From Coriobacteriales bacterium (lineage in GTDB: Bacteria; Actinomycetota; Coriobacteriia; Coriobacteriales; UMGS124), in assembly GCA_048173955.1 (NCBI GenBank), contig DBEYOB010000046.1, forward strand, positions 12,413-76,412: 64,000 nucleotides of DNA, in the 5' to 3' direction. Made by a program: the position numbers and the translations under genes. Below, in pieces: positions 20,104 through 64,000 of this stretch (positions are counted from its first letter, which is position 1; each line of letters starts with the position of its first letter). The notes beneath the pieces are model-generated. The model made no database searches. It was given only the letters and a program-made list of their open reading frames with translations, and was not told the origin of the DNA.

Positions 20104-20108
20104 CCACC

Positions 20109-22143: not shown

Positions 22144-22191
22144 CTGCGCGCCTGCGCGCCTACGCGCCTGCGCGCCTACGCGCCTACGCGC
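22144..22191. repeat. Octanucleotide tandem repeat CCT(G/A)CGCG x 6
   Basis: Six contiguous 8-bp units were read directly from the sequence. The last unit overlaps the stop codon (22184-22186) of the flavoprotein gene. Confidence 0.7.
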
Positions 22192-23914
22192 CCGTGGCGG
22201 CGATGCGGCCGGCGCGGCGGGCGAACGTCGCGGAGCGGCCGGCGGCGAGGCCCGCCATCTGGTCGGGGTAGGTGTAGGCAAAGAAGCTGCCCGAGTCGTT
22301 GCCGCACACGTAGAGGCCCTCGATCAGGTTGCCCTCGGTGTCCAGGGCGTTCATGTTCTCGTCGATCTTGATGCCGTCCATGGTGCACAGCATGTAGCCG
22401 GTGTTGCGCACCCCGTAGAACGGCGCGGTGTCGACGGGCGACAGGCGGAACGGCTCCTTGCCGAAGTCGGGGTCCTCGCCGTTGGCGTAGTTCTCGTTGT
22501 TGCGCTCGACGGTGGCGACGAGGTTGTCGGCCGGGATGCCGAGCTTCTCGGCGAGCTCCTCGATGGTGTCGGCCTGCTGGATGAAGCCCTGCTCGATGAG
22601 GCCCTGGTTCATGGCCTTGGCCGTCTCCAGGTCGATGGCCGAGACCGGGGCGCCGTTCGTGAACGGGAACATGCGCGAGCAGCCCTGCGTCTTGAACTGG
22701 TACACGTAGTCCTCGAAGTTGGAGTCCCAGATGGTGGCGTAGGTGTGGCCCGGCTGGTCGATCGAGGCGTGGAGGATGAAGTCGTAGGGAGCGCTCTCGT
22801 TGGCAAAACGCTCGCCGTTGAGGTTGACCTTGAGCCAGGGCTGCGAGGACATCCAGAACATGCCGTTGACCATTTCCTCGCCGGCGATCATGTCGGGCAT
22901 GAGCGGGCAGCGGTCGAAGAGCATGCTCGTGTGGACCTCGTCGAAGGCCGCGCCGGCCCAGATGCAGGCCTTGATGCCGTCGCCCGTGGAACCCGGGATG
23001 CCCGAGTTGAACGAGAAGGTCAGCTTGGTCTCGGCCTGCAGGGCGCTCATCATGTCGTCGTTGAGCGCGTAGCCGCCTGTGCACACGAGCACGCCCTTGG
23101 CGGCGTTGACGCGCAGGTGGGCGCCCTCGGCGTCCTGGGCGACGATGCCGGTCACGCGGCCGGTCTCGTCCTGCTCGAGCTTGACCATGGCGGTGCTGTA
23201 GCGCACCTCCACGCCGAGCTCGGTGGCGTAGTCGATGAGCACGGCGCCGTCCTCGCTCGTGCGGCCGTCGGCCACGCAGGCGTGGCCCGTGGCCCAGTGG
23301 CGGTAGTTCATGATGTCGGCGTACTCGTCGAGGTCGTGGTCGGCGTCGTACATGAACTCGCGGCCGGCCTTGACGCACAGGTCGCCGTACCACTCGATGG
23401 CCTCGGCGCTCTCGTCGGCCCACAGGCGCAGCAGCTTGGTGTTGACGTTGGAGGCGGAGTACATCGTCATCTCGCGGCAGATGTCGGTGGCCTTGATGTC
23501 GCAGTCGTCTTCGAGCTGGTACTTGGTGCCGATGGCGCCGAGGGTGCCGCGGATGCCCGGGCTCGCCTCGTTCTTCTCGACGACGAGGACCTTGGCGCCG
23601 TTCTCGGCAGCGGTGCACGCGGCGAACAGGCCGGCGGTGCCGTAGCCCACCACGAGCACGTCGCACTCGAGGGTCTCGGCGATCTGGTCCTCGGCGACCT
23701 CGGGGGCCGTGCCGAGCCATGCGGGCACGTCGGCGTTTGCGGCGGCGGTTGACGTGCTGTCAGCGGAAGCCGCGCCGTCGGCCGCCGCGCCGTCGCCGGC
23801 GGTCTCGGCCGCCTCGTCGGCCAGGGCGACGGAGGCCGCCAGCGCCGTGCCGGCGGCAAGGGCTGCGGTGCCGGTCACGAAGCCGCGGCGGGTGAGCTTG
23901 TCCATCGTGTCCAT
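22184..23914 (-). CDS. Tat-exported FAD-dependent oxidoreductase (fumarate-reductase-like flavoprotein family)
   Basis: ORF 22184..24223, with the start at ATG 23912-23914 (GAAAGGAA upstream). It has the signal MDTMDKLTRRGFVTGTAALAAGTALAASVALA, the motif CDVLVVGYGTAGLFAA and a C-terminal GLYVCGNDSG motif. Confidence 0.85.
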   Translation of the reverse strand: MDTMDKLTRRGFVTGTAALAAGTALAASVALADEAAETAGDGAAADGAASADSTSTAAANADVPAWLGTAPEVAEDQIAETLECDVLVVGYGTAGLFAACTAAENGAKVLVVEKNEASPGIRGTLGAIGTKYQLEDDCDIKATDICREMTMYSASNVNTKLLRLWADESAEAIEWYGDLCVKAGREFMYDADHDLDEYADIMNYRHWATGHACVADGRTSEDGAVLIDYATELGVEVRYSTAMVKLEQDETGRVTGIVAQDAEGAHLRVNAAKGVLVCTGGYALNDDMMSALQAETKLTFSFNSGIPGSTGDGIKACIWAGAAFDEVHTSMLFDRCPLMPDMIAGEEMVNGMFWMSSQPWLKVNLNGERFANESAPYDFILHASIDQPGHTYATIWDSNFEDYVYQFKTQGCSRMFPFTNGAPVSAIDLETAKAMNQGLIEQGFIQQADTIEELAEKLGIPADNLVATVERNNENYANGEDPDFGKEPFRLSPVDTAPFYGVRNTGYMLCTMDGIKIDENMNALDTEGNLIEGLYVCGNDSGSFFAYTYPDQMAGLAAGRSATFARRAGRIAATGA

Positions 23915-24223
23915 GGGTGCGTTCCTTTCTGTGCGTTCCCTCCGATTGAAGGGGGACGGGGTGTCACGCCGACGCCGATGCCGATGCCGACGTCGGCCGT
24001 GCCGTGCGGCTCCCACCATAGGCGCGGCGGGTTGCGAAGACCTCACCCACTGTTCATGATTGTCGGCATGGGGTGTTTCGGGGGCCGTCGTCACCCGGAG
24101 TTCACGACGCCGGGGAGTAAGATTGACCCGAAACGACCCGCCCTCCAAACCGGGCGCAGGGGTGCGACGGGGATGCGGGGGCGGTCCCGGGGCGGGCTGA
24201 CGCGGCGAGGGAGGCGGACGCAC

Positions 24224-25648
24224 ATGTCAATCGGCGTGCACGGAAGGCCGGCTGCGACCGCCCTGATCTCGTTTGCGCTTTACGCCCTGTGCAACTGGGT
24301 GCTCACGAGCAAGGTGTTCCCCCTGGGGACGGAGGTCGCCCCGCTGTGTCGCGATGTCGCCACGCTCGTCGAGGCGCTGGGGTTCCTCGTCGTGTCCCTC
24401 GTCGCCGCCCGCGCTCCGCACGCCCTCGGTCGGAGGTTGTTCTGCGTCGCCCCCGTGGTCCTCACGACGGTCGGGGCGCTGCTGCTCTGGCTGGGGCGCG
24501 GCACGGCCTGGACGGCGACGCTCGCCCTGTGCCTGCTGCTGCTCTCGGCCGTCTTCGTGATGCTGTTCGTCGGGTGCGCCCTGTCTCGGCTCGACGAGCG
24601 CCTGGTGGGGCCGTGCGTGCTCGCAGGCCTCGTCGTCTCGTACCTGGCGCGGTTCTGTCTGGTCGATGTCCCGGGCATTCCGATGCTTGCGCTGTTCGCG
24701 GTGGGGCAGGTCGCTGTGATCGCGGTTGCGCGCGGTGCGGTCGCCGACGCGCTGGACGTCCTGCGGAGCGGCGCCGCGCCCGAGGAGCTCGCCCTGACCA
24801 ACCCGTTCTCGTTTCTGCCGCGCACCCACCGGCTGTTCGTCTGCGTGCTGCTCTTCCAGACGGCCTATGGGGCCGGCCTTTCGTTCGGCGAGGTCGACAG
24901 CACGCCGCTGGCGACCTTTGCCGGTGTGGTGCCCCTGCTCGTCGTGTGCGTTGCGGGTGCCGCGGCGAGGAGGCTCCCCAGCGGCGACACGATGTTCGGC
25001 GTGGCGCTGCTGTTCGTTATGGCGGGCATCCTGTTCGCCCCGCTGTCCCAGGAGCTGGGCGGGTCGCTGACGAGCAACCTGCTCGAGGCGGGCAGCTCGT
25101 GCTTCATGCTCGTGTACTGGTCGGTCCTTGCAAGCCTCGCCCTGCGCAACCGCTCGGGCGTCCTGCCGCTGTTTTCGTGGAGCGGGTTTTTGCTGAGCCT
25201 AGGCGTGGTGGCGGGGGCCGCGCTGGGACGCGGGTACTACGCCGTGCTGGAAGGCGGGCCGGTCGTCGGAACCGTGACGGTGGGGGTCGCCGTGCTCGCC
25301 CTGATGGCGTTCGCCCTGTTCGGCTTGAAGAGGTTCAGCTTCGACGACACGGTCCGGGCCCTCGTGGAAAGCCCCGAGGTGGCCGAGGCGTCCGCCGCGC
25401 CCGCCGATTCCGGCAGCGGGGACGACGCCGTGGCGGGCATGCCGGAGCGCTACGGCCTCACCGCGCGCGAGGCCGAGGTGTTCGCCCTGCTCGCCCAGGG
25501 CCGCAACGGCGCCTACATCCAGCGGCAGCTGGGCATAAGCTACAACACGATCAAGACGCACGTGGCCCACATCTATGCCAAGCTGGGCGTTCATGCGCAC
25601 CAGGAGCTGATCGACCTGGTGGAGGCCGTGCGGGGTGGCGAGGGGTGA
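24224..25648 (+). CDS. Membrane-bound LuxR-family regulator (multi-TM N-terminal domain + C-terminal HTH)
   Basis: ORF 23978..25648, with the start at ATG 24224. About 10 hydrophobic helices are followed by GLTAREAEVFALLAQGRNGAYIQRQLGISYNTIKTHVAHIYAKLG. The gene is divergent from the flavoprotein at 22184..23914. Confidence 0.8.
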   Translation: MSIGVHGRPAATALISFALYALCNWVLTSKVFPLGTEVAPLCRDVATLVEALGFLVVSLVAARAPHALGRRLFCVAPVVLTTVGALLLWLGRGTAWTATLALCLLLLSAVFVMLFVGCALSRLDERLVGPCVLAGLVVSYLARFCLVDVPGIPMLALFAVGQVAVIAVARGAVADALDVLRSGAAPEELALTNPFSFLPRTHRLFVCVLLFQTAYGAGLSFGEVDSTPLATFAGVVPLLVVCVAGAAARRLPSGDTMFGVALLFVMAGILFAPLSQELGGSLTSNLLEAGSSCFMLVYWSVLASLALRNRSGVLPLFSWSGFLLSLGVVAGAALGRGYYAVLEGGPVVGTVTVGVAVLALMAFALFGLKRFSFDDTVRALVESPEVAEASAAPADSGSGDDAVAGMPERYGLTAREAEVFALLAQGRNGAYIQRQLGISYNTIKTHVAHIYAKLGVHAHQELIDLVEAVRGGEG

Positions 25649-29871: not shown

Positions 29872-30168
29872 GCCGACCCGGCCCGCACGGCTGTTCGGCC
29901 ACCCGTCCGCGCGGCCGTCGGCCCGGCTCGCTCGCATGGCCGGTGCAGGCTGCCGTTCGCGGAAAACTCGCTCACCGAGCAAATTCGATGAACTAACTCA
30001 TTGAACAAATTCACCGAACCGATTATAGTGTGCACGTACCGCGAGAGGCATGAGGCGGCCGCAGGCGCGTTGCGGGATTGCCGGTGTCCCTCGGGGATCC
30101 CTGCAAGGGGATGTATCGAAACCAGGGAATTGCCCCGCGGAGGGGCAGCGAACGAGAGGGGATTTGCA

Positions 30169-31518
30169 ATGAAACTGAGCCGCCGCAACTTCCTGAAGAA
30201 CGCCGCAATGGGTACCGCGGCCGCCGCGGCCGCGAGTGTGGCCGCCAGCGCCGGTGTCGCGCTGGCCGACGAGGCCGCTGCGACTTCCGACCAGCTTGTC
30301 ATGCCCGACGTGCAGCAGGCGCTCAACACCGGAGCCGACGCCGCCGCCATCCAGTGGGCCGACCAGGCCGAGGTCGTCGTCGTGGGCTGCGGCTCGGGCG
30401 GTGCCCCCGCCGCAATCGAGGCCGCCCGCGCTGGCGCCGACGTGCTCGTCATCGAGAAGATGGACTGGCTCGGCGGCTGCATGCGCCGCTGCGGCGGCGG
30501 CCTCATGGGCTGCAACACGCTCGTCCAGCAGAAGCTCGGCATCGAGGACCCGGGCACCGACGTCCTCTACGACTACATGGCCGCCTGCGCCGGCAACCAC
30601 TACGACCCCGACCTGCTCCGCACGTACGTTGAGAACGCCGGTCCGTGCGTCGACTGGGTCATCACGCCCGTCGAGGAGGGCGGCCTGGGCGGCCAGCCCC
30701 TCGAGGAGTGGGAGCTCGGCCCCGAGGACGGCATGCAGGGCATCGTGTCGCCCGGCCTCAACGTGGGCGCCCCGAGCGACGTCGAGAACAACTACTGGGA
30801 GGAACTCGGCTTCGGCTCCGACATCGAGCACCGTCGCGTGCACTGGTTCAAGTCGAACCCTGAGGACGTCGACCCCGGCGACCGTCAGTACACCGCCTAC
30901 ACTGGCAACGACTTTGGCGCCGGCTACGGCTCGGTGGGCGGCGGCGGAACCGGCCTGTGGAAGCCGTTCGAGGACGAGCTCTACAACCTCGAGAACGTCC
31001 GCATCCAGATGGAGACCACCATCAAGGGCATCATCATGAACGCTAACGGCGAGGCCATCGGCGTGAGTGTGGCCCCCACCGCCGGCGGCGACGTCTACAA
31101 CATCAAGGCCACCAAGGCCGTGATCATCGCCACGGGCACCTTCGTGTGCGACAAGGAGATGTACGAGAACTTCACCGGCAAGCCCTGGACGTACGAGGAG
31201 GACCCGCGCTCCATCGTGAACGGTAGCCCCTACAACGACTACCAGGCCGACGGCGCCGGTGTCAAAGCCCTGCTCGCTGTGGGCGTCGCCCCGCGCTACA
31301 TCATCGAGGGCAACTCGGGCGGCATGCGCATCAACAGCAACGCCCAGGCCATCAACACCTACGGCGAGATCGTCCCGCGCCTCTACATCACCTCGCGCGC
31401 CGTGGGCGGTCTGTTCGCTGAGGACCACTACCCGCAGTGCGGCGTGTTCGTGACGTCGGGCATCGTCTTCGGCCGCATCGCCGGCATCAACGCCGCTGCG
31501 CTCCCGGCTTGGGAGTAG
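30169..31518 (+). CDS. Tat-exported FAD-dependent oxidoreductase (short, 449-aa member of the flavoprotein family)
   Basis: ORF 30001..31518, with the start at ATG 30169 (GAGAGGGGA upstream). It has the signal MKLSRRNFLKNAAMGTAAAAAASVAASAGVALA, the motif AEVVVVGCGSGGAPAA and a C-terminal RLYITSRAVGG motif. Confidence 0.85.
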   Translation: MKLSRRNFLKNAAMGTAAAAAASVAASAGVALADEAAATSDQLVMPDVQQALNTGADAAAIQWADQAEVVVVGCGSGGAPAAIEAARAGADVLVIEKMDWLGGCMRRCGGGLMGCNTLVQQKLGIEDPGTDVLYDYMAACAGNHYDPDLLRTYVENAGPCVDWVITPVEEGGLGGQPLEEWELGPEDGMQGIVSPGLNVGAPSDVENNYWEELGFGSDIEHRRVHWFKSNPEDVDPGDRQYTAYTGNDFGAGYGSVGGGGTGLWKPFEDELYNLENVRIQMETTIKGIIMNANGEAIGVSVAPTAGGDVYNIKATKAVIIATGTFVCDKEMYENFTGKPWTYEEDPRSIVNGSPYNDYQADGAGVKALLAVGVAPRYIIEGNSGGMRINSNAQAINTYGEIVPRLYITSRAVGGLFAEDHYPQCGVFVTSGIVFGRIAGINAAALPAWE

Positions 31519-31653
31519 GCGTTCTGCAGCAACGGGGGCGTGTCCGATGGGTTTGCTGACCGTCGGCGCCCCCGTTTCCGCGTGGTCGGCACCTGCCGGC
31601 GCAGTCGGCTGCCGGCCGCGCCCGGTTTGTTGGAGAAGAGGGAGCGTGTCCCC

Positions 31654-32619
31654 ATGAGTATCAACGCAACAGAATCAAGACGTCTCAGACTTGCGATATG
31701 CGCCGTCGGCGGCATGCTGGTGTTGGGGCTCGCCGGCGCGGCATGCGGCATGCGGGCGATTTCGAACGCATCGGCCGAGGAGGCCGCCCAGACCCCCGCC
31801 GTTGAAGCCGCCCCTGCCGCCGACGGGTCCTCGGCTGCCGAGACGGACACCCGCCCGCAGCTCACCCCGTCGAGCGCGACGTCGCAGGCGATTTCGGAGA
31901 ACCAGCCCATCAGCGGTAACATGACGCTTCCCGGTGGGGGTGCAGCTGCGGGTGCGGGGACGGGCGGCATGCCCCAGCTCGCCGCTACGAGCGAGGGCTC
32001 GCGTGCCAACCTTGAAGGCCTGCAGGACCTCTCCTACCTGGGAGATGCTGCCTCGCAGGCTTCGACCACTGCCGGCGCCGCGTCTTCGGCCGGCTCTTCG
32101 TCTGCGCCGACCCAGACCGCATCGGCGACCGAGGACATCACCGCGCTGGTGGGCGAGTCGTTCTCGATGGACGTGGACTGCACGCTGTGCCACACGAAGG
32201 AAATCGACAACATGCAGATCGAGGGCTTTACCGGCTACAACCACAAAGACCTCACCTGCATCATGTGTCACGACGATGAGGAGTCGCTGGCTGCCGCGCA
32301 CGAGGAGTACTCCGTCCGCCAGGCGACTCGCGTGGTCGCCCTCGTGAACACCACGGTCGACGAGGAGCTGTGCTTCTCGTGCCATGGCGACCGCGAGGCC
32401 CTGATTGCCGCCACCGCCGACTCGACCGTGCTTGTGGACGAGAACGGCACGCAGGTCAACCCTCACGACCTGCCTGCCGGCGACCAGCATGCCAGCATTA
32501 CCTGCGGCTCGTGCCACAAGATGCACAATGACCTGACGACCCAGCAGACGGCGCAAAACACGTGCCTCACCTGCCACCACGCCAACGTGTACGAGTGCAA
32601 CACCTGCCATGTTGCGTAA
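31654..32619 (+). CDS. Membrane-anchored multiheme cytochrome c (six CXXCH motifs)
   Basis: ORF 31540..32619, with the start at ATG 31654. It has the N-terminal TM helix LAICAVGGMLVLGLAGAAC and an Ala/Ser/Pro-rich linker. The heme motifs are CTLCH, CIMCH, CFSCH, CGSCH, CLTCH and CNTCH. Confidence 0.85.
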   Translation: MSINATESRRLRLAICAVGGMLVLGLAGAACGMRAISNASAEEAAQTPAVEAAPAADGSSAAETDTRPQLTPSSATSQAISENQPISGNMTLPGGGAAAGAGTGGMPQLAATSEGSRANLEGLQDLSYLGDAASQASTTAGAASSAGSSSAPTQTASATEDITALVGESFSMDVDCTLCHTKEIDNMQIEGFTGYNHKDLTCIMCHDDEESLAAAHEEYSVRQATRVVALVNTTVDEELCFSCHGDREALIAATADSTVLVDENGTQVNPHDLPAGDQHASITCGSCHKMHNDLTTQQTAQNTCLTCHHANVYECNTCHVA

Positions 32620-44030: not shown

Positions 44031-45602
44031 CTAAACTTGGGCCTCCTCTACGGCGGTGAGCAGCTCTTGCTGCGAATGGATGCCGAGTTTGGAGTAGATG
44101 TTCTTGCGGTGTGCGTTGGCGGTGTTGCGCGTGATTGAAAGCTGCCCGCAGATATATCCGACGTCGCGCCCGCGGGCGAGCAGCGTCAGGACCTCGGTCT
44201 CGCGTGCCGTGAGCCCGTGCTCACGTGCCACGGCTGCGCAACGTTGCCTCACTGACTCGTGGCTCATGCCAAACAGCAGGGGCGAGAGCGAGAGCAGATT
44301 GCGCTCGGGGAAAACGGCGACATAGGCGAGGGCGAGGAGGACGGTGAGTGCGAGGACGGTCCACGGCATGGCCTGCTGCCCCGCCGAGGGGCCGCCCATC
44401 CTTGCGAGTGCCTCGACCACCGCGAATCCCGAGCACATGCCCAGGTATTGCCCGGCGAATACGGGACCGACTACGCCGATCGGCTCGGCGCGGCGCATGT
44501 GCGCATAGCCGAGCGCGAGCATCCACATCGTGGGCCCTATGAGCGAGTACCCGATATAGACGAGCGCATACGATGCGAACAGCTCGGCCATCGGGACATT
44601 GGTTGCGGCGACGCCGGTTGCCGTCACGCCGCAGAGGCAGCAGGCAAACATCACGCGGTAGTACAGTTCGAGCCGGTAGGCGCCGCGCTTTTGCATGGCT
44701 CGGGCGCAGAGGAGCACGGCGGTGGCGCTTGCGAGCACCACCGCGGCAAACACGGCGGGAAACAGGCTTATGTCGAGGCGTCCCGGCAGCAGCTTAATGA
44801 AGTAGCACCACACAAACTGGGTGACAAACGAAAACACCGCTATTGCCAGGGCGAGGCGGGCAAGATCGTGCCTGCCTCCCGTTTCCATGTCGGTCGGCTT
44901 TCCAAAGGAGCGTGCGGAACGGTGCTGGGGAAGTGTCCCGACGTCGCCTTCGCTCGCGTCTCCCTCGTTCGCGTCGGCACAGTACAGAAGGTGTCCCGAG
45001 ACGAGTGGCGCCAGGATAACGAGGGCGACGCGGACCGGGAACGGAAGCCAGGCCAGGATGATGAACGGCAGCCATTGCAGGCATGCTGCCGCCGAAACGA
45101 GCACGAGGGCCTCGCGCAGGTCGAGGAGGGAGAGGTGCCTGCCCCAGGCAAGCGTAGACCAGGCAATGCAGACGCCCACTCCCAGGCCGGCAAGGACGCT
45201 CAAGAAAGTGGGGGAGGTGGGGGCGAGCTCGGTCAGCAGCACCGCCCCTGCGGCTCCTACGGCGCCGACGAGGCAAAAGACGAGCAGGACGGGCCGGCGG
45301 GAGAACGCCCCGAGCCGTTCGAGGACGCCAACGCGCCCCGTTTTGGCGAACGCAGCGCAAGCGAGCAGGGCGATGCTCGCCACAATGGTGGCGCAGAGGA
45401 ACACGGGGTCGTGCACGAGCCCGCCCTTCATGACCTCCCGGTCTCTCAAGACGCCCTCGAAACAAAAGAGCAAGTCGATCCAGGCCAACAGGAGTGCGAG
45501 ACCCAACCAGGTTCCGGTCTTGGTGCATAGAGACCCCGCGGGCAAAAACGATCCGTGTCGCTGCTCGGCCTCACCGGTGCAAGCCGTTGCGTCTTTCGCC
45601 AT
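44031..45602 (-). CDS. Membrane-bound LuxR-family regulator
   Basis: This is the 3' part of the 1391-aa track ORF, with the start at ATG 45600-45602 (MAKDATAC, with a G-rich stretch upstream). Many TM helices are followed by GLTARETEVLTLLARGRDVGYICGQLSITRNTANAHRKNIYSKLG. The gene is divergent from the flavoprotein at 46029. Confidence 0.8.
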   Translation of the reverse strand: MAKDATACTGEAEQRHGSFLPAGSLCTKTGTWLGLALLLAWIDLLFCFEGVLRDREVMKGGLVHDPVFLCATIVASIALLACAAFAKTGRVGVLERLGAFSRRPVLLVFCLVGAVGAAGAVLLTELAPTSPTFLSVLAGLGVGVCIAWSTLAWGRHLSLLDLREALVLVSAAACLQWLPFIILAWLPFPVRVALVILAPLVSGHLLYCADANEGDASEGDVGTLPQHRSARSFGKPTDMETGGRHDLARLALAIAVFSFVTQFVWCYFIKLLPGRLDISLFPAVFAAVVLASATAVLLCARAMQKRGAYRLELYYRVMFACCLCGVTATGVAATNVPMAELFASYALVYIGYSLIGPTMWMLALGYAHMRRAEPIGVVGPVFAGQYLGMCSGFAVVEALARMGGPSAGQQAMPWTVLALTVLLALAYVAVFPERNLLSLSPLLFGMSHESVRQRCAAVAREHGLTARETEVLTLLARGRDVGYICGQLSITRNTANAHRKNIYSKLGIHSQQELLTAVEEAQV

Positions 45603-46028
45603 GCGCATCCCCCCGACAAGCGTTTCCCAAACGTCGCTACGTGCATGATACGACATCGTCCGACAAAACGTCCGTACCTGGGGTGTCTGTCGACCGCGTC
45701 GCGGGCGCCTCGGTACCGGAAGTGCAAAGGCGTGCAGGAAGTGCCAAGAGTGATTGTCTTCCCAGCTCAGAACCATCTCACCACGTCGAGGTGAGGGTGA
45801 GGTTTGGCAAGATAGCCCTGCGGTGGCAATGGACGGGCGCATGCGTTCAGACCGAACATCGCCCCGACGCCGGATGCGGGGCGCGGTGCTCGGGCGCCGC
45901 GTCGCGCTGGCTGGGCGGCGCAATTGCCGCCTGGCTGAAACCGGTTCTGTCGGGATTGGCCTGTGTGGTGCGGTTGAGATGCCGCAGGACTGCCGCGCGG
46001 CGGATCCCACGATGCGAAAGAAGGTCGA

Positions 46029-48104
46029 GTGTTCATGCGGAACCAAGCTCAGCTGGTCGAAGAGCTCTCCAAGGTGCGCGGGGCCATCCCCCTGCCCGCG
46101 TCCCTGACGCGCCGCGGCTTCGTCGCCGGTGCGGCAGGTATGGCCGCTGCCGCCGTCGCAGGCGGCGCGGCCTCCGCCCTGGCCGAAGAGGCCGCCCCCG
46201 CCGAGGGCGCGCCTGCCGAGACGCCCGCCGAAGACGCCGCTGCGGCACCTGCCGCCGCTGCCGGTATGGCGTTTTCCGGCAACGAGGGCAAAACGATGGG
46301 TGAGGTCCTGGGTGCCGGCTGGCTCGGGGAGGAGCCCGAGATCCCGGCCGATCAGATCTCCGAGACCATCGACACCCAAATCGTGGTGTGCGGCGCCGGC
46401 CACGCCGGCACGGCGTGCGCCCGCAAGGCTGCCGAGCTCGGCGCGCAAGTCGTCGTCGTCGACCCCCAGACCGAGGAGAACTTCATGGTCCTCGGCAACG
46501 ACGTGGGCCACCTCAACTCCTCGTGGCAGACGGAAACCTGCGGCGTGCCGCGCTACGACGAGACCGAGTTCATGAACGAGTACCAGATCTATTGCGCCGG
46601 CCGTGCCCAGCCCAAGCTGGTGCGCGACTTTGCCTACCGCTCGGGCGAGGCGTTCGACTGGTTCATCGACAACTTCACCGATGAGGAGAAGGCCGGCATC
46701 GTCTGCCTCAACTGGCCGGTCACCGAGGGCTACAGCTACAAGAAGGGCATCTTCACCTCCTACGTGGGCACGCCCAACTTCGGCGGCGGCGTGGGCCTGC
46801 AGGAGGCCGTGATCCGCACCCAGCAGATCGCCAAGGATGCCGGCGCGCAGTTTATGTACGAGACCAAGGCCGTGCGCCTGGTCCACAGCGACGACGGCAC
46901 CGAGGTCACCGGCGTCATCTGCGAAAAGGGCGACGGCACCTACGTGCAGATCAACGCCCAGGCTGTGGTTTTGGCCTGCGGCGACATCGGTGCCAACTCC
47001 CCGATGTACAACGCCATCTGCGCTGAGAACTACGCGCTCGGCGAGTATCGCGACTGCTCGGCCATGAGCGGGCGCGACGGCAGCGGCATCGCCATGGCCA
47101 TGCGCATCGGCGCCAAGGTCGAGATCGGCACCGGCGGCGACATGGGCAGCCACGCCTCGTTCCCGCTCGGCCCGATGGAGGGCGCCGAGACCATCTGGCT
47201 CAACAAGTACGGCAAGCGCTTCTGCAACGAAGCCTACGGCGGACCGCTCCTCTCCGGTTGCGCCACTGCCCGCCAGCCCGGCAGCATCATCTACAGCGTG
47301 TGGGATTCCGACTGGAAGACCGTGCTGCTCAACCAGATTGCCGGCCACCTCGCACTCAAGAACTGGGACGAGGAGAGCGTCGAGAAGATCGGCGGCTACA
47401 TGGAGGCCGCGATCGGCTCGGGCGCCGAGGGCGACGACACCTCGGGCAAGTACCTCTACTGCGCCGACACCCTCGAGGAGCTCTTCGAGTACATGGGCAT
47501 GCAATAGGGCGTGGCCGCCAACGCCCTGGCCGAGATCGAGGCCTGGAACGCGGCGCGCGAGGCGGGCGTGGACACCGAGTTCGGCCGCGACCCCGAGATG
47601 CTGTGGCCCATCGCCACGCCGCCGTTCTACGGCTTTGTGGGTGACAAGCGCGTGGGCGGCGGCTCGCTCGTTGCGACGTCGGGCCTGCTGTGCACCGGAG
47701 ACCAGCAGGTTCAGGGCCAAGGCTTCGAGCCTATCAAGGGCCTCTACGCCACGGGCAACTGCTGCGGCGGGCGCTTCCCCATGGGCTACAACGGCATCAT
47801 GAACGGCGTGTCCATCGGCATGTGCCTCACGCTGGGCATGACGCTCGGTGAGTTCCTGGCTACCGGCGACCTCGATGCGGCCACCACGCTCGGCCTCAAC
47901 AACGCCGCGCCCAAGCAGTCTGCCAATGGTATGGGCCCCGGCCCGATGCCCGGAGGCGACGGTGCTGAGGGCAAGGGCGCCGAGGGTGAGGGCGCCCCTG
48001 CTGGGGACGCTCCCGCCGAGGGCGGTGAGGCGCCGGCCGCCGAGGGCGAGGCTCCTGTCGAGGGCGAGGGCGCTGCCGCTCCCGTCGAGGATGCTGTCGA
48101 GTAA
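46029..48104 (+). pseudogene. Tat-exported FAD-dependent oxidoreductase interrupted by an in-frame TAG at 47505-47507
   Basis: ORFs 46029..47507 and 47511..48104 are in the same frame, separated only by TAG-GGC. The upstream part has LTRRGFVAGAAGMAAAAVA and TQIVVCGAGHAGTACA. The downstream part retains the conserved PPFYGF and GLYATGNCCGG motifs. The start is GTG 46029 or ATG 46035. Confidence 0.7.
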
Positions 48105-48314
48105 CGCGGCGTCCGGCCCGGACGAGCCGGGCTGAAGGCAAAGGGTAAAAGGCAAAGAAGCCGTTTGAGAAAGGGCCGTTTGGGGCGAGCGAATCGTGCG
48201 TCCCAAACGGCCCCGGTTGTTGACCCGGCTTTTGCGGGATGCGCCGGCAGGGGCGAAACGCCTCCCCTGCGTTATGCACGGTTGTCGGGTGGCTCGCGCG
48301 CCGGCCCGCGGAGC

Positions 48315-55013: not shown

Positions 55014-56669
55014 CTAGCGCGCCTCGCGTTCGTACAGGTCGATGAGCTCCTGCTTCCCGCCCACGCCCGCCTTGCGGTAGATGTGGGCCGCATGGGTCTT
55101 GACCGTCCCGGCGGTCACGTAGAGCTGCTCGGCGATGAAGGGCAGGCTGCGCCCGCGCAGCAGGTAGGCGCACACCTCCGCCTCGCGCCTGGTCAGGTCG
55201 TGGCGGGACGCGAAGGCGTCGAGCGCCCCGGGAACGTCGGGTCCGCCGTCGGAGCCGGCAAGGTCTCCGTCGGTGCTGCCCGGCTTTCCGTCGGCGCCGC
55301 CTGGTCTCGCGCCGCGGCCATGCCCGCCTTCGCAGCCTCCGCCCGCGCCGCCTTCTCCGGATGCTGCCGTGCGTGCCCGCGGTCGTGCCTGGGCCTGGGT
55401 TTGGGCGGCGTCCTCCTCCAGGGCGGCAAGCCGGTCCGACAGCGTCTCGGCCATCATCACGAGCAGAAAGAAGAGGACGAACACCCCGCCCGCGCATGCC
55501 AGGGTGAGCCAGGCCTCGTGTGCTGCGGTGCCGCTGAGCGCGCGGCCGAGCACGTTTCCCGCGAACACGACGCCGCCGATGAGGCCCTGGCCCACGCCGA
55601 ACGACAGCAGCGGCGAGGCCCCCGTCAGCTGGGTCGCCTCGGTGACCTTGAGCATGACGAGCGCCTGCAGGAAGATGCTCGCCCCGTTGACCATGGCGCC
55701 GGCGAGCGCGCGCTCTCCGGCGGGGACCGCGATGATGAGGAGCATGCCGAGCACCGCGAAGGGAAGGCAGTAGCGGTAGAGCCGCTCGACGCCCACGCGC
55801 CTGCGCTCTTTGGGGACCAGCACGATCGCGGCGCACGTGATGCACCCGCACACGAGGAACCCACCGGGGAACATGACGGCCGCGCCGTTGTAGGTCGAGC
55901 CCATGAGCAGCGCGGTGGCGAGGTTGCCCACCAGCGCGGTCGCGGCGAAGAGCGCCATGGTGCGCCACGGGAGGACGCCGATGTCGGCCGACCCCTCCGC
56001 CGCCTCGCCGAGCAGCGGCCCGCTCGGCGTCCGCGAGGGCCAGACCTCCATCGTGAGCCGGTGGCGTCGCCACGAGTCGACGAGCCACAGACCGCCCGAG
56101 GCGAGCGGCAGCACGTAGGCGAGCAGGTGGGCGCAGGCCGTCGGGAGGCAGAGCGAGACGAGGTAGAGGACGTAGCCGAGCAAAAAGGACAGCAGGACGG
56201 GGCGGCGCATGTCCCGAGATCCCAAGGAGAAGCGCGCGCCCCAGGCGACGGTGAGCACCATGCCGCCCACCCCGTAGAGCACGCCGCAGCCGACGATGGC
56301 GGCGACGGGCGGCTCCGCTGCACTCAGCATGAGCGCGATTGCGAGGGACGACAGGGCAAGCAGGCCGGCCGCCCCCACGACGGTGGCGGGGGAGAGGTTC
56401 GGGCGCCAGCGCCCCATGGCGACGGCGATCAGGATGCCCAACACGAGCATCGTGAGCTGCGAGGCGTAGTAGGCGAACTCGATGCTGATGCTGTCGACGA
56501 CGTCCTTGGAGGGGAAGAGGGCGGACGAGAGGTTGGCGACGTAGCCCCACGCCCACAGGCACGCCGCGCCGGCGACGGTGCAGGCGGTCGAGCTCCGCCG
56601 GGGCCGTTCCGCCCGCGCGCCGCGCGAAGGCGTCGGCGATGATGAGCCGGGTGTGCCCGTCTGCTGCAC
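55014..56669 (-). CDS. Membrane-bound LuxR-family regulator
   Basis: 551-aa ORF starting at GTG 56667-56669, with GGAGG 5 nt upstream. Multiple TM helices are followed by a Gly/Ala-rich linker. The HTH is LTRREAEVCAYLLRGRSLPFIAEQLYVTAGTVKTHAAHIYRKAG. The gene is divergent from the flavoprotein at 56908. Confidence 0.8.
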   Translation of the reverse strand: MQQTGTPGSSSPTPSRGARAERPRRSSTACTVAGAACLWAWGYVANLSSALFPSKDVVDSISIEFAYYASQLTMLVLGILIAVAMGRWRPNLSPATVVGAAGLLALSSLAIALMLSAAEPPVAAIVGCGVLYGVGGMVLTVAWGARFSLGSRDMRRPVLLSFLLGYVLYLVSLCLPTACAHLLAYVLPLASGGLWLVDSWRRHRLTMEVWPSRTPSGPLLGEAAEGSADIGVLPWRTMALFAATALVGNLATALLMGSTYNGAAVMFPGGFLVCGCITCAAIVLVPKERRRVGVERLYRYCLPFAVLGMLLIIAVPAGERALAGAMVNGASIFLQALVMLKVTEATQLTGASPLLSFGVGQGLIGGVVFAGNVLGRALSGTAAHEAWLTLACAGGVFVLFFLLVMMAETLSDRLAALEEDAAQTQAQARPRARTAASGEGGAGGGCEGGHGRGARPGGADGKPGSTDGDLAGSDGGPDVPGALDAFASRHDLTRREAEVCAYLLRGRSLPFIAEQLYVTAGTVKTHAAHIYRKAGVGGKQELIDLYEREAR

Positions 56670-56907
56670 GGAGCCTCCGTTTCTCGCGTCCGGTGCGTAA
56701 AGCCGGCTTTAAGGACGGGGACGCCGGCGGGTAATGATAGAGTCATAATACACCTCTATCTACCTGCATGTTTATAGAATATCTGCCATTTCGGCAGATG
56801 CCTTCGCCCCGGGGTTTGAGGCATGATCGGCCTGTCGGGCGGCGCATGCGCGCCGCTTTCTCGCGCCCCTCGCACAATGCGGGAGGACGGACCAAAGGAG
56901 GAACGCC

Positions 56908-58611
56908 ATGGACAAGATCAGCTCCAAGCCGGTGAGCCGCCGCACGTTCATCACCACCGCCAGCGCCACCGCGGCCTTTGCGGCCGCCGCCAGCGCCGCC
57001 GGCATCGCCCTGGCCGACGAGGCCGCCGAGTCGGCCGACTCCAGCAAGCCGGTCGCCGAGGGCTCCCTCGCCGGCGAGCAGGCTGTCGCCGGCACCGCCA
57101 ACGCCAGCTTCCCCACCAACGACCCCAACCTGTTTGCCCCCTGCGCCGCCGGCGAGGGCGAGATCGCCTTTGTGGCCGAGCCCATCGCCGACGACGAGAT
57201 CGTGGCCACCTACGACGTCGACGTCGTGGTGTGCGGCCTGGGCCACGCCGGCACGCTGGCCGCCCTGTCCTGCGCCGACCACGGCCTGAACGCCGTGGCC
57301 GTCGAGAAGCGCGGCATCGCCAACGTCTGCTCGGCCACCATCGGCGGCACCACCTCCAAGCTGCACCAGTACTGGGGCGTCTCCTTCGACGAGAAGGAGT
57401 GGCTCGACGACGCCATGACCGACTGCGGCTTCCGTGGCAACATCGATCTGTACAAGCGCTACCTGGCCTGCAACGGCGAGGCCGTGGACTGGTACGTCAG
57501 CCACTTCGAGGGCAAGACCGAGGAAGACTTCCCGCTGACCTTCGCCGCCGGCGACTTCCCCGACTTCCGCGACTCCTACGACGTGACCTCGCTGTCGCGC
57601 TCGTGGAACACCTCGCTCAACCTCCCCTACACCCCCGGCGAGATGGCCGAGCTGCTGCCGCAGTGGATCGAGGCCGCCGGCGCGACGATTCGCTGGGAGA
57701 CCCCGGCCTGCCAGCTCGTGACCGACGAGTCGGGCGCCGTGACCGGCGTCATCGTGAAGAGCGCCGACGGCTATGAGAAGTACAACTGCGCCAAGGGCGT
57801 CGTGCTCGCCACCGGCGGCTACGGCTTCAACCTCGAGAAGCTGCAGCGCTGCTGCCGCCCGCGCGACCTCGCCCTGTGCGGCTGGATGAGCCCCTCGATG
57901 GGCAACACCGGCGACGGTCACGAGATGGCTGTGGCGATCGGCGCCATCGAGGACGAGTACCCGCACCCCCTCATGCTCGACCCGCAGCAGCTCATGCCCT
58001 ACCTGCGCGTGAACAAGCTCGGCAAGCGCTTCACGCCCGAGTATGAGCCCTACAACCACCTCGCCAGCGCCATCCAGGCCCAGCCCGGCGCGTGCGACTA
58101 CTACATCGTCGACGGTGACATCGCCAACAAGATCGACGCCATCTGGACGCCTTCGAGCTCCTGCTACGGCCCCAAGGACGTGTGGGTTGCCGCCGCGACC
58201 AGCGAGAACGCCTTCAAGGCCGACACCCTCGAGGAGCTCGCCGAGCTCATGGGCGTGCCCGCCGACGCGTTCGTCGAGACCATCAACCACTGGAACGAGA
58301 TGTGCGACGCCGGCGAGGACACCGACTACCACTTCCCCGGCTCGATGATGGCCAAGATCGACACCCCGCCGTTCTACGCCACCCTCGAGGGCGCCGAGGC
58401 ACTCTCCACCGCCGGTGGCCTGCAGGTCGACATCCACTCCCGCGTGCTCGACAGCAACTTCCAGCCGATTCCCGGCCTGTTCGCCATCGGCCTGACCTCG
58501 GGCGGCATGTTCCAGAACACCTATCCGCACAACCTGAACTGCCTGTCCCACACCCGCGACTGCACCTTTGGCTACCTCGTGGGCAAGTACCTCTCGGGCG
58601 ACGAGAGCTAA
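56908..58611 (+). CDS. Tat-exported FAD-dependent oxidoreductase (fumarate-reductase-like flavoprotein family)
   Basis: 567-aa ORF with an AAAGGAGGAA RBS. It has the signal MDKISSKPVSRRTFITTASATAAFAAAASAAGIALA, the motif VDVVVCGLGHAGTLAA and PPFYAT...IPGLFAIGLTSGG. Confidence 0.9.
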   Translation: MDKISSKPVSRRTFITTASATAAFAAAASAAGIALADEAAESADSSKPVAEGSLAGEQAVAGTANASFPTNDPNLFAPCAAGEGEIAFVAEPIADDEIVATYDVDVVVCGLGHAGTLAALSCADHGLNAVAVEKRGIANVCSATIGGTTSKLHQYWGVSFDEKEWLDDAMTDCGFRGNIDLYKRYLACNGEAVDWYVSHFEGKTEEDFPLTFAAGDFPDFRDSYDVTSLSRSWNTSLNLPYTPGEMAELLPQWIEAAGATIRWETPACQLVTDESGAVTGVIVKSADGYEKYNCAKGVVLATGGYGFNLEKLQRCCRPRDLALCGWMSPSMGNTGDGHEMAVAIGAIEDEYPHPLMLDPQQLMPYLRVNKLGKRFTPEYEPYNHLASAIQAQPGACDYYIVDGDIANKIDAIWTPSSSCYGPKDVWVAAATSENAFKADTLEELAELMGVPADAFVETINHWNEMCDAGEDTDYHFPGSMMAKIDTPPFYATLEGAEALSTAGGLQVDIHSRVLDSNFQPIPGLFAIGLTSGGMFQNTYPHNLNCLSHTRDCTFGYLVGKYLSGDES

Positions 58612-60558: not shown

Positions 60559-62400
60559 TTACTCTTCGGTCGCGGCAAAGAGTCCGGCGATGTAGCCGCT
60601 CGTGATGACGCGGCCCAGGCCGTGGATGCGCTGGCCGCCCGAGGATTCGCCGGCGCAGTACAGGCCGGGGATGACCTCGCCGAACAGGTCCATGACCTGC
60701 ATCTTGCGGTTCACACGCAGGCCGGTGGTCGTGTCGTGGAAGCCGGGCGTGGACCAGGCGGCGTAGAAGGGCGGCGTGTCGATCGTCTCGGTCATGCCCT
60801 CCTTGCCGAAGTCCTCGTCGGTGCCCGCCTCGGCGAGCTCGTTGTAGCGCTCGACGGTCGCGACCAGGGTGGCCGGGTCCATCTCGATCTGCTCGTAGTA
60901 CTTGTTGACGATCTTTCCGGCGAGCTCCTCGAGCGTGTCCGCCTCGAAGAAGCGGCCGTCTGCGCGGTCGACGGTGGTGTCGTCGATGGTCCACTCCTCG
61001 CGCTCGACGGCCTTGGCGTCGAAGATCGTCCAGATGGGGCCGCCGTAGCGGTGCAGCTCGCCGTCGTCGGGGTCGACGGTCAGGACGCTCGCGAAGGCCG
61101 CCTTGTTCCACTCGGTGCTGCCGTCGGCCTCGTTGGCGAAGCGCTCGCCGAGCATGTTGACCTGCAGCAGGTTCGACCAGTCGTACACGCGCAGGCCCGT
61201 GGCGCGGCTCAGCTTGAAGAGCGGCGAGGTGGGGTACACCGTGGCGAACGAGTCGGTGTACTGCGTGCCGATCATGGCCGCCTTGGTGAGGAAGCTGTCG
61301 TCGACCACCTGGTTGGCGACGTCGCCCAGGCAGGCGCCGATCGCCATGGCCGCAATCTCGCCCGAGGCGTCCTTGGGGCAGAACGGGTCGCCCGAGGTGC
61401 AGTCGTACTCGACGGTGCGGCGCGGGTCGATCATCGTGCGGAAGTACACGTTGCCCGAGGAGCCGCCGGTGCAGATGATGACGGCCTTGTTCGCCTTGAC
61501 GTTGACCGTTTCCTTGGCCTCCTCGATGTTGCCGTCGGAGAAGGGGCTGAGCGGGGCGAGGGGCTCGGTCTCGCCGGGCAGGATGGTGGGCGAGTAGTGC
61601 GCCTGGACGCCGAGCACGCGGCCGGAGAGGTTGCCCTCGCGGTAGATCTTGTCCATGTGGTAGTTCATGAGGAACTGGGCGCCGGCCTCGCGGGCGGAGC
61701 GCTCGAGCGGGCGGGTCAGCCCGATGCCGCAGCGGTCGATGAGGGCGCCGTCCTGCGAGGGCGACAGGTAGTCGGCGTAGGAGACCCAGTCCTCGGTCGC
61801 CTGGTCGGTGAAGGTCCAGCGGGGGACGGTCTCGGGGTCGGTGCCGCCCTGCGTGTAGTCGTCGCCCTGCTTGATGGGCTCGACGTCGCGCACGATGACG
61901 CCCTTGTCCTGGATGTACTCGTAGGCCTCGACCATGTGGTCGGCGACGGAGCGCACGTAGTCGCGGTCGTTGTAGATGGATTGGCCGGTCTGGTTGGTGG
62001 TGTGGTCGATGTAGTACTGGTCGGGGGAGTCCTCGATGCCGTACCTCTTCTGGATCTCGGTACCGCAGCCGGAGTGCAGGTTGCCGCCGGAGAGCGCCGC
62101 GCGGCCGCCCACGTCGTAGTTGGCGTCGACGAAGATGACGGTGAGGCCCTCGTCGAGGCAGCGCAGCCCGGCGGGCAGGCCGGCGCCGCCGGCGCCGAGC
62201 ACCACGACGTCTGCCTCGTAGTCCCAAGCGACGTCGCTCGCGTCGGCCGTGTCGCCGCGCACGAGGTCGCCGTCGGTGACCTCGATGTTGGCGTCGACGT
62301 CGGCCAGGGCGGTGCCGGCGAGGGCGCCGGCCGCCGCGGCGCCGGCGACGCCGCATGCTGCGCCGCGCAGGAAGCTGCGGCGGGAAACGGTTTCTGACAT
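60559..62400 (-). CDS. Tat-exported FAD-dependent oxidoreductase (fumarate-reductase-like flavoprotein family)
   Basis: ORF 60559..62676, with the start at ATG 62398-62400. It has the signal MSETVSRRSFLRGAACGVAGAAAAGALAGTALA, the motif ADVVVLGAGGAGLPAG and PPFYAAW...IPGLYCAGESSGG. Confidence 0.85.
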   Translation of the reverse strand: MSETVSRRSFLRGAACGVAGAAAAGALAGTALADVDANIEVTDGDLVRGDTADASDVAWDYEADVVVLGAGGAGLPAGLRCLDEGLTVIFVDANYDVGGRAALSGGNLHSGCGTEIQKRYGIEDSPDQYYIDHTTNQTGQSIYNDRDYVRSVADHMVEAYEYIQDKGVIVRDVEPIKQGDDYTQGGTDPETVPRWTFTDQATEDWVSYADYLSPSQDGALIDRCGIGLTRPLERSAREAGAQFLMNYHMDKIYREGNLSGRVLGVQAHYSPTILPGETEPLAPLSPFSDGNIEEAKETVNVKANKAVIICTGGSSGNVYFRTMIDPRRTVEYDCTSGDPFCPKDASGEIAAMAIGACLGDVANQVVDDSFLTKAAMIGTQYTDSFATVYPTSPLFKLSRATGLRVYDWSNLLQVNMLGERFANEADGSTEWNKAAFASVLTVDPDDGELHRYGGPIWTIFDAKAVEREEWTIDDTTVDRADGRFFEADTLEELAGKIVNKYYEQIEMDPATLVATVERYNELAEAGTDEDFGKEGMTETIDTPPFYAAWSTPGFHDTTTGLRVNRKMQVMDLFGEVIPGLYCAGESSGGQRIHGLGRVITSGYIAGLFAATEE

Positions 62401-62486
62401 GGCAATGCACCTTTCTGAAGGGTGCCCGGCGCGGCGGCGTGCCCGCATCGCCGCGCCGGGCGTCTGGTTGGGGTCGGATCTGCGCG

Positions 62487-64000
62487 CTACCTGGTCGCCA
62501 GCATCTCGCCGATCGTCATGTCCTGGGCGAGGGCCTCGCCGATGAGCTGGCCGTACACCAGGGAGCGGCCCGTGGAGCAGCCGGGGCAGTGCACCGGGTA
62601 GTTGAAGCCGAAGAAGTCGCCCTGGCAGTTGCCGGCGGCGAAGAGGCCCGCGATGGGCTGGTCGTCGTCGGTGCACACCTGCGAGTCGTCGTTCACGTGC
62701 ACGCCGTAGGCGACGGCGAGGTTCGAGGCGTAGATGCGCGTGGCGTAGTAGGGGGCGGTCGTCAGCGGGTAGAGCATCTGCTCAACGACGCCGAACTGGG
62801 AGTCCACGCCCGCATCGCAGGCGGCGTTGTACGCCTCGACGCTGGCCACGAACGCCTCGGTGGGCACGCCGATCTTCTCAGCGAGCTCCTCGAGCGTGTC
62901 GGCGCTCACGAGCGTGCCGTTCTCCAGGCGTTCCTCGATCTCGCCGGGAATCGTCTCGAGCATGGTCTCGTAGCCTTGCGGGAACTGCTTCTCCACATAG
63001 GTGGCGTAGGCGCCGTCGAAGATCGACCAGGCGATGTTGCCCTTGGAGTTCATGCGCGCGTCGGTGATGAACGGCTCGAAGGGCATCTCGTTCATGAAGC
63101 GCTCGCCGTCGCTGTTCACCGCGAGCATGCTCAGGAAGAACGGCGTCATGTTGTAGCTGCGCGTGGCGATGGTGAACTGGTGGATCATGGGGGCCGCGGG
63201 GCTCTTGGAGATGCCGCCGCCGATCCACTTGGTCATGAGGATGGCGTCGCCGGTGTTGGCGCCGATGGGCAGGTAGGCGCTCTCGTCGGCGCGGTTGGCG
63301 ATGGGCGCCCAGCAGTCCACCATCTCCTGGTTGCCGGAGATGTCGCCCGTGCACAGCACCACGCCCTTGGCGGCGTTGAACTGGATGTGGTTGCCCTCGG
63401 CGTCGGTGGCGACGACGCCGGTCACGCCGTCGGCCGCGCTGCCCACGAGCTGCTCGGCGTGCGTGTTGAAGAAGAACTGGCAGCCGTTCTCGGTGGCCGA
63501 GGCGATGAGCACGTCGCCGAGGTTCTGGTGCGGCTCGAGGCCGTCGGTGCGGAAGATGCCGAACTCGGCGCTGCTGAAGCGCACGGCGTCCTGGAACACG
63601 ACGTAGCGCTCGGGCATGGTGTCCCATCCGGCCTTGGAGGTGCCGCCCGTCGAGGGCTCCACGGTCGTGTCGTACTCGGCGCACAGGTCGGTGATGTAGT
63701 CCATGACGGGGCCGGTCTGCTCGGCCCAGGTGCGGATGAGGTTGTAGTTCGCGGTCTGCTGCGAGGCGGCGTACATGAGGCGGGCGGCCTCGAGCGGGTC
63801 GATCTCGATGCCGTTGTCGGCGAGGACCTTGCTGCCGATGGCGCACATGTCGAGGCCGCAGAAGCGCCCCTTCTCGCCGCGCTCGATCACGGCGACCGAC
63901 GCGCCGCTGCGCGCGGCGGCCTGGGCGGTGCCCATGCCGGCCATGCCGCCGCCCACCACCACGATATCGAAGTCGTAGGTCTCGGCGATGTCGGTGATGG
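62487..64000 (-). CDS. FAD-dependent oxidoreductase of the same flavoprotein family, 5' end beyond the right edge
   Basis: The track ORF starts at an internal Met. The reverse-strand frame stays open to base 64000 and reads ...ITDIAETYDFDIVVVGGGMAGMGTAQAA, a dinucleotide fold. The C-terminal motifs are APYYATR and IAGLFAAGNCQG. Confidence 0.85.
   Translation of the reverse strand, partial: ITDIAETYDFDIVVVGGGMAGMGTAQAAARSGASVAVIERGEKGRFCGLDMCAIGSKVLADNGIEIDPLEAARLMYAASQQTANYNLIRTWAEQTGPVMDYITDLCAEYDTTVEPSTGGTSKAGWDTMPERYVVFQDAVRFSSAEFGIFRTDGLEPHQNLGDVLIASATENGCQFFFNTHAEQLVGSAADGVTGVVATDAEGNHIQFNAAKGVVLCTGDISGNQEMVDCWAPIANRADESAYLPIGANTGDAILMTKWIGGGISKSPAAPMIHQFTIATRSYNMTPFFLSMLAVNSDGERFMNEMPFEPFITDARMNSKGNIAWSIFDGAYATYVEKQFPQGYETMLETIPGEIEERLENGTLVSADTLEELAEKIGVPTEAFVASVEAYNAACDAGVDSQFGVVEQMLYPLTTAPYYATRIYASNLAVAYGVHVNDDSQVCTDDDQPIAGLFAAGNCQGDFFGFNYPVHCPGCSTGRSLVYGQLIGEALAQDMTIGEMLATR

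Follow-up and report, generated by a model that had tools for sequence, protein, structure and literature searches.

An apparently record-specific in-frame amber codon in a predicted secreted flavin reductase gene of a Coriobacteriales bacterium

Results

Organization of the reductase locus

The 64-kb stretch of DNA analysed here (the window) contains a flavin reductase gene that is interrupted by an in-frame amber codon and lies divergently to a gene for a LuxR-family regulator. The locus comprises the following features.

44031-45602, minus strand: LuxR-family (GerE HTH) regulator of 523 aa, intact, N-terminal part long and hydrophobic; transcribed divergently to the reductase gene
45603-46034, no strand: intergenic regulatory region between the LuxR and reductase genes, with a distinctive strain haplotype
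46035-48107, plus strand: flavin reductase gene, 689 codons if read through; TAA at 48105-48107
46035-47504, plus strand: 5' part of the reductase gene, 490 codons; alternative GTG start at 46029 (492 codons)
46101-46184, plus strand: Tat-type signal-like segment (...SLTRRGFVAGAAGMAAAAVAGGAASALA), seen in the translation
47502-47504, plus strand: CAA (Gln) codon, GAA or GAG (Glu) in relatives; window-private G>C at 47502
47505-47507, plus strand: in-frame amber codon TAG, for which the ENA assembly of the same strain has GAG; G>T at 47505 private to the window
47508-48107, plus strand: 3' part of the reductase gene, 199 sense codons plus TAA; GTG 47511 opens a 197-aa ORF

Positions 47493-47513 read ATG GGC ATG CAA TAG GGC GTG, which is the frame of the ORF beginning at 46029 or 46035. 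As described in an initial annotation of this DNA, no frameshift accompanies the TAG, and the same frame runs on to the TAA at 48105-48107. The 197 codons that this annotation placed after the TAG are coding and in frame; the complete downstream part has 199 sense codons, the figure of 197 being that of the ORF counted from GTG 47511. Orthologs begin at MRNQ, which matches a 5' part starting with ATG 46035.

The 5' part encodes a putative Tat-type signal, the GxGxxG motif VVCGAGHAG and most of a FAD_binding_2 domain. The 3' part encodes a helix (residues 491-510), the C-terminal strands of the FAD domain with the motif GLYATGNCCGG, and a low-complexity tail rich in Gly, Ala and Glu. Both PPFYGF and GLYATGNCCGG, which had been reported downstream of the TAG, were found there in the translation. 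The N-terminus of the read-through product (…SLTRRGFVAG…) shows, likewise in the translation, TRRGFV followed by a hydrophobic stretch, and residues R26, R27 and F29 of this putative Tat signal (numbering of the ortholog P0002) are invariant or nearly so in an alignment of 61 sequences. In the same alignment the glycines of the GxGxxG and the C-terminal G-[LI]-[YF]-A-x-G motifs, both of which are present in the window gene, are invariant. The TAG cuts the FAD_binding_2 domain (PF00890), which was found in intact orthologs also, such that profile positions 2-294 match upstream of it (E=3e-21) and positions 329-403 downstream; taken alone, the downstream fragment reaches E=5e-4 and 19.8 bits against a cut-off of 20.4. 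The read-through product has a single sequence match in the PDB, the flavocytochrome c3 fumarate reductase 1QO8; the alignment extends to either side of the break, and the 3' part corresponds to residues 435-561 of 1QO8.

For structural comparison an AlphaFold (AF2) model of P0002, an intact ortholog that is 97% identical to the read-through product, was used (mean pLDDT 83, core >90; pTM 0.80). Its top Foldseek matches were 1D4C, 6T85 and 1QJD (E ~1e-27, probability 1.00), and its best structural matches comprise Shewanella fumarate reductases, urocanate reductase and ketosteroid dehydrogenases. The C-terminal tail (residues 640-686, pLDDT <50) is predicted to be disordered. The reductase thus shares its two-domain FAD fold with the flavocytochrome c3 fumarate reductases of Shewanella (1QJD, 1D4C, 1QO8) and with UrdA (6T85, 6T86); the GLFAAGE-type C-terminal motif aligns downstream of the break. 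It differs from these enzymes in that identity is only ~18-22%, that it has no fused cytochrome or FMN-binding domain, and that it carries the long, presumably disordered Ala/Gly/Glu-rich tail.

Because uninterrupted orthologs of 683-689 aa align end to end with the read-through product at 96-99% identity, the two halves are, judged by homology, parts of one gene and not a chance juxtaposition. This agrees with the earlier description of an otherwise intact flavoprotein reductase, as does the presence of PF00890 on both sides of the break. The gene appears to be an ordinary representative of the 'respiratory-like' flavin reductases of gut Coriobacteriia, a large family of FAD-dependent enzymes secreted by way of a Tat signal, with export and activity being predicted; it is paired with a divergent, putatively membrane-bound LuxR-type regulator.

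The divergent LuxR gene, which has PF00196 at the C-terminus (residues 464-515), differs from its counterpart in L020 by two amino acids and contains no stops; the initial annotation was right in calling it intact. Its divergent arrangement with the reductase gene is syntenic in all conspecific loci. The related loci used for comparison derive from uncultured Coriobacteriales/Coriobacteriaceae MAGs.

The amber codon and the adjacent change

Comparison with 19 related loci revealed that not one codon but two neighbouring codons are altered in the window. The first is GAA or GAG in all 19 loci and CAA in the window; the second is GAG in 17 of them and GCC or CCT in the remaining two, while TAG occurs in none. 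The ortholog comparison that had been proposed for finding the ancestral codon at the TAG thereby points to GAG, and not to CAG, TAC or TGG as had been suggested; the preceding change from GAA to CAA had been missed. The lesion is best read as two transversions 3 bp apart (GAA GAG to CAA TAG, i.e. Glu to Gln and Glu to stop) rather than as a single-base change. In an alignment of nine conspecific alleles, the 2,073-bp gene has three window-private sites (47502, 47505 and 46136), two of which lie within 3 bp of each other, an event with a chance of ~1% if sites were independent; window-private changes downstream of the TAG were not found in this alignment. The proposal of a very recent single-base mutation is therefore sound with respect to recency, but two bases have changed. 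P0123, the allele closest to that of the window, deviates from the read-through product in four residues, among them the two at the CAA and TAG codons.

Fifteen aligned homologs (65%-99% identity) have MGME(E/x)GV where the window has MGMQ-stop-GV. Among orthologs MGM is invariant and the next Glu nearly so, whereas paralogs have MGVP, LGIP or IGVP at the same site. In the P0002 model, residue 491 starts a well-ordered and well-packed helix (491-510, pLDDT ~98). Thus, the variable linker to which the TAG had been assigned is variable between paralogs, but in orthologs it is conserved and leads into an ordered helix.

A templated origin of the two changes by a quasi-palindrome, paralog conversion or a chimeric path was rejected since no donor is present inside the window: 8-12-mers spanning both changed bases have no other copy on either strand, and the 19-mer at the site has no match in the window with up to 3 mismatches. 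Hairpin energy is barely altered by the change (-26.3 vs -25.2 kcal/mol).

Downstream of the TAG, codons 492-630 show 24 synonymous and 2 non-synonymous differences from L017, and GC3 is 0.86 across the whole post-TAG part. Relaxed constraint after the TAG is, as far as these substitution patterns tell, not seen.

The same strain in an independent assembly

The exact LuxR allele of the window, which is present in both ENA and Logan, led us to ERZ28597512, an ENA metagenome assembly made from sample SAMEA8072244. Two scaffolds of this assembly, scaffold_202 and scaffold_268, span window positions 20169-55511 and are identical to the window at 35,339 of 35,343 positions. The four differences are located at 47502 and 47505, both G in the ENA assembly, and at 21769 and 21796. 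Hence, where the window has CAA TAG, the ENA assembly reads intact GAA GAG (Glu-Glu). Other conspecific strains diverge by 1-7% across the same region. The intergenic region between the LuxR and reductase genes has ~45 window-private differences from eight conspecific loci and is identical in the same-strain ENA and Logan contigs. Because of the near-identity, as compared with 1-7% divergence elsewhere, and because of the shared strain-private intergenic haplotype, the ENA scaffolds are regarded as belonging to the same strain. Judged by sequence identity only, the NCBI record would derive from the sample behind the ENA assembly; a literature search on the sample and run accessions gave no match. 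A sense codon at the position of the TAG, which the initial annotation had named as the observation that would speak for an assembly error, has in effect been found by proxy, i.e. as the GAG of the same-strain ENA assembly.

The Logan contigs, assembled from run ERR6254870 of the same sample SAMEA8072244, show 100% identity to the window and end at 47155, before the TAG, and the ENA scaffolds break inside the reductase gene at 47765-47819 with a 55-bp overlap. Given such breaks near the TAG in both data sets, the assembly graph seems to be fragmented and fragile within a few hundred bases of it. The discrepancies between ENA and the window fall into two tight pairs, 3 bp (47502/47505) and 27 bp (21769/21796) apart. 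The second pair consists of two transitions in a spacer; its interpretation as a compensatory hairpin change was rejected (no pairing, z-score -1.0).

Occurrence among conspecific alleles

The 490-aa truncated product and the 197-aa fragment were each found in one contig only, which is the same 86,446-bp NCBI contig and evidently the one from which the window was taken. About 30 conspecific alleles are uninterrupted and encode 683-689 aa; among the 15 listed members of the 31-member 90% cluster, 13 are of this length, and the other two are the window product and P0129. The latter protein (536 aa, locus L023) is frameshifted by two 1-bp insertions, one of which lies in a run of G. We rejected it as evidence of recurrent inactivation, long-read indel error being the more likely cause in this 1.56-Mb 'contig_N'-style assembly. 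Neither the Logan nor the ENA gene set contains the 197-aa fragment, though both have the LuxR allele next to it. Searches for exact copies of the repaired 689-aa protein and of a 595-aa partial product found neither in the collection, and the JGI metagenome collection gave 0 matches for the TAG haplotype and likewise 0 for the intact-haplotype control, so that it speaks for neither haplotype.

Discussion

The interruption of the reductase gene is a two-base change that is unique to one record, is opposed by an intact allele in the same strain background, and is not followed by decay downstream. Judged by its distribution, the TAG is a record-specific, unfixed change and not a stable property of the organism. 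With a probability of roughly 0.55, we favor the view that an error cluster or a minority haplotype entered the deposited consensus at a fragile site of probably low coverage, and that the strain's working gene is intact. In such a case, the consensus would have picked up the erroneous or minority sequence CAA TAG at a fragile spot of the assembly graph, and the working copy of the reductase gene in the strain would have GAA GAG. This view is favored because the discrepancies between the two assemblies come in tight pairs, as expected from alternative local paths or error clusters and not from scattered divergence, because contigs break nearby in two assemblies, and because the fragment ORF is absent from ENA and Logan. 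We therefore infer that, in the source sample, the TAG haplotype is not the major allele but a minor one or an error. Strain heterogeneity and sequencing error, which the initial annotation had listed as alternatives, are indeed possible and now weigh at least as much as a fixed mutation.

Some properties of the lesion fit less comfortably with an artefact. De Bruijn assemblers do not invent k-mers; the TAG haplotype is therefore likely to be supported by some reads at least, and it might predominate in the sample behind the NCBI record. Two specific transversions 3 bp apart are atypical of random Illumina error, and the second discrepancy pair resembles natural polymorphism, which suggests real micro-heterogeneity. 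Like ordinary premature-stop calls in MAGs, the TAG occurs in one record, with sense codons in relatives and in the same-strain assembly and with no decay downstream. Unlike them, it involves two adjacent codons, each hit by a transversion, at a distance of 3 bp; a single substitution is the commoner case.

These considerations lead to the main competing explanation, a genuine and very recent multi-nucleotide mutation, which we regard as a realistic though less probable alternative. It might have arisen in one event, e.g. by error-prone bypass of clustered guanine damage, and the sub-lineage carrying it would be major or fixed behind the NCBI record; the reductase gene would be a nascent pseudogene there and intact in a sister population. 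Both changes are transversions of G, and the close spacing of two of the three private sites points to a single event. Moreover, the deposited 86-kb contig otherwise agrees perfectly with the independent assemblies, and the transitions at 21769/21796 are ordinary ones that suggest micro-diversity between the two consensus sequences. A precedent is available in that the presence or absence of individual flavin reductases is documented to vary by strain in Eggerthella lenta (bioRxiv 10.1101/2022.12.26.521950). Arguing against a genuine mutation is the fact that no other assembly, the same-strain one included, has the TAG haplotype, and that the gene sets of Logan and ENA have the LuxR allele without the 197-aa fragment. 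The lack of decay downstream of the TAG suits a very recent mutation and an artefact equally. A more far-reaching version holds that CAA-TAG is a real allele which segregates in the strain population of one host, goes back to one multi-nucleotide mutation, and persists or spreads since loss of the reductase is advantageous in the gut of that host. We consider this improbable; if true, an accessory electron-acceptor pathway would here be observed while undergoing a loss-of-function sweep.

Two further explanations are effectively excluded. That the gene is an established pseudogene of the lineage, in the process of being lost from the species, might be concluded from the second disrupted allele (P0129), but the 1-bp insertions in this allele are typical of long-read indel error. 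The ~30 intact conspecific alleles (13 of the 15 cluster members listed) and the intact copy of the same strain in ENA argue against lineage-level loss, and so does the gene-wide purifying selection evident from 89 synonymous vs 16 non-synonymous differences from L017 outside the low-complexity tail. The probability of this explanation is accordingly very small. Still smaller is the probability that the TAG is decoded or bypassed, be it by pyrrolysine insertion or a suppressor, by programmed read-through, or in the form of a two-piece enzyme that re-initiates at GTG 47511 and is co-exported with the Tat-signal-bearing N-terminal fragment. The perfectly kept reading frame and the position of the GTG 4 nt past the TAG are compatible with such a scenario. 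Tat export of folded complexes would in principle let a signal-less partner hitch-hike, and the 197-aa fragment might thus be exported. However, not one of the 19 related loci shares the TAG, the ENA assembly of the same strain has GAG, and TAG is the commonest normal terminator in the window (13 of 29 GC3-supported ORFs). No tRNA genes were found within the 64-kb window and no pyl-type families among the 29 ORFs scanned in it, which is in line with the initial judgement that read-through is much less likely than mutation. The adjacent exchange of Glu for Gln has no role in a recoding model either. As to a split enzyme, no GGAGG/AGGAG-like Shine-Dalgarno sequence is located 5-12 nt before GTG 47511, and in the P0002 model the break falls inside the fold, at the start of a well-packed helix. 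The lost part holds the FAD-motif strands (β-strands 531-537 and 558-572) as well as the helix 592-610. A functional enzyme made of two pieces is thus improbable, as far as can be judged from the model.

If translation does stop at the TAG, the 490-aa product would lack the C-terminal strands that bind FAD and would be inactive. Annotation based on the deposited record would yield either two gene fragments or a pseudogene, and the reductase would be taken to be missing from the strain; the evidence indicates that the strain carries an intact reductase gene. A lone in-frame stop in a metagenome-derived contig should therefore be checked against independent assemblies or reads before it is given a biological reading. 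The phenomenon as such is ordinary, i.e. a nonsense variant or a consensus error in a metagenome contig, affecting an ordinary enzyme of a known family. Should the variant be real, it would be a routine case of strain-level turnover in the reductase arsenals of gut Coriobacteriia.

In Eggerthellaceae, 'respiratory-like reductase arsenals' with neighbouring transmembrane LuxR-type regulators have been described, with UrdA, IrdA, Cgr2 and Ber as examples from E. lenta (Little et al., bioRxiv 10.1101/2022.12.26.521950). The FAD_binding_2 domain, the putative N-terminal signal with its twin-arginine motif, the divergent GerE/LuxR neighbour with a hydrophobic N-terminal part and the location in a paralog-dense region are common to these reductases and the locus studied here. 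The latter differs from the E. lenta systems in its host, which tentatively appears to be a Senegalimassilia-like member of the Coriobacteriia, and in its apparently record-specific premature stop. In total, the 64-kb window contains eight paralogs with a FAD_binding_2 domain, three genes for LuxR regulators, and a molybdopterin oxidoreductase with an Fe-S subunit. A second candidate for a TAG-split reductase (29992-31518 / 31519-32619) was rejected, as its first ORF ends past its own C-terminal FAD motif; the ORF at 31519-32619 is not a reductase half but a separate gene for a membrane-anchored multihaem cytochrome that shares the frame. The window also encodes a PFOR, whose 90% cluster holds a PFOR fragment named Senegalimassilia anaerobia.

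Gene content of the reductase island

The window (1-64000) is a reductase island, in which genes for FAD_binding_2 proteins occur together with LuxR genes and genes for other oxidoreductases. The relevant features are:

726-2492 (-), FAD_binding_2 gene
8552-10561 (-), FAD_binding_2 gene
10973-12769 (-), CoA-disulfide-reductase-like Pyr_redox_2-rhodanese fusion
17512-20732, molybdopterin oxidoreductase with a 4Fe-4S subunit
22184-24226 (-), FAD_binding_2 gene
~23753-25648 (+), LuxR gene
29992-31518 (+), FAD_binding_2 gene (449-aa reductase: 30169-31518)
44031-45602 (-), LuxR gene
46035-48107 (+), FAD_binding_2 gene
55014-56669 (-), LuxR gene
56827-58611 (+), FAD_binding_2 gene
60559-62781 (-), FAD_binding_2 gene
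62487-63998 (-), FAD_binding_2 gene

Adjoining the first reductase gene is an ORF (2691-4481, +) with integrase core (rve) and HTH_21 domains, which looks like an IS-element transposase. Another ORF (13370-15151, -) comprises 593 codons with a strong coding signal (GC3 of 0.88); it had no Pfam match at E<=1e-5.

Downstream of the gene for the 449-aa FAD_binding_2 reductase (30169-31518, +), and in frame with it, lies a separate gene for a protein of 321 aa (~31654-32619, +). This protein is membrane-anchored and Ser/Ala-rich, and several CxxCH motifs occur in the multihaem cytochrome c3-like domain at its C terminus. Together, the two genes resemble flavocytochrome c, but as two polypeptides.

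Promoter region and C-terminal tail of the interrupted reductase

The spacer (45597-45991) between the divergent LuxR gene and the reductase gene interrupted by the in-frame TAG (46035-48107) differs between this strain and eight conspecific loci at about 45 positions in ~400 bp; the genes on either side are 98-99% identical to those of the same eight loci. Because part of the spacer variants is shared with locus L019, several promoter haplotypes appear to be in circulation, possibly as a result of recombination or of diversifying regulation.

At its C terminus the reductase carries a low-complexity tail of ~60 residues (47930-48104) that is rich in Gly, Ala, Glu and Pro. This tail is predicted to be disordered (pLDDT below 50) and is polymorphic in length among conspecific alleles (683, 686 or 689 aa). 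An FMN_bind domain (PF04205) is present in some of the more distant homologs.

Assembly breaks and broken genes

Two independent assemblies break within or beside the interrupted reductase gene. At 47765-47819 one ENA scaffold of this strain ends (L026/L032) and another begins (L027), the two sharing exactly 55 bp. The Logan contig L033 already ends at 47155, 350 bp ahead of the TAG. These breaks suggest low coverage or graph branching at the locus.

Apart from 47502 and 47505, the window departs from the ENA sequence of this strain at only two positions in 35 kb, 21769 (A/G) and 21796 (T/C). They lie 27 bp apart in the spacer where a Nitrate_red_del chaperone gene converges with the reductase gene 22184-24226 (-), and no hairpin relation between the two positions was found (z-score -1.0).

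In a conspecific contig of 1.56 Mb (L023:5001-7100; ERZ28751500 contig_13448) a 1-bp insertion at the window equivalent of 47353 shortens the called reductase allele to 536 aa. The G run at 48002 contains a second insertion, and both probably represent long-read indel errors rather than independent inactivation. The metagenome assembly GCA_964261755.1 includes a pair of near-identical contigs, each with a different LuxR gene in two pieces, of 78 and 460 aa (L024:7996-9568) and of 179 and 348 aa (L025:19154-20810); each of these genes is whole (523 and 551 aa, respectively) on the opposite contig. Broken genes are thus recurrent in this neighbourhood at the assembly level.
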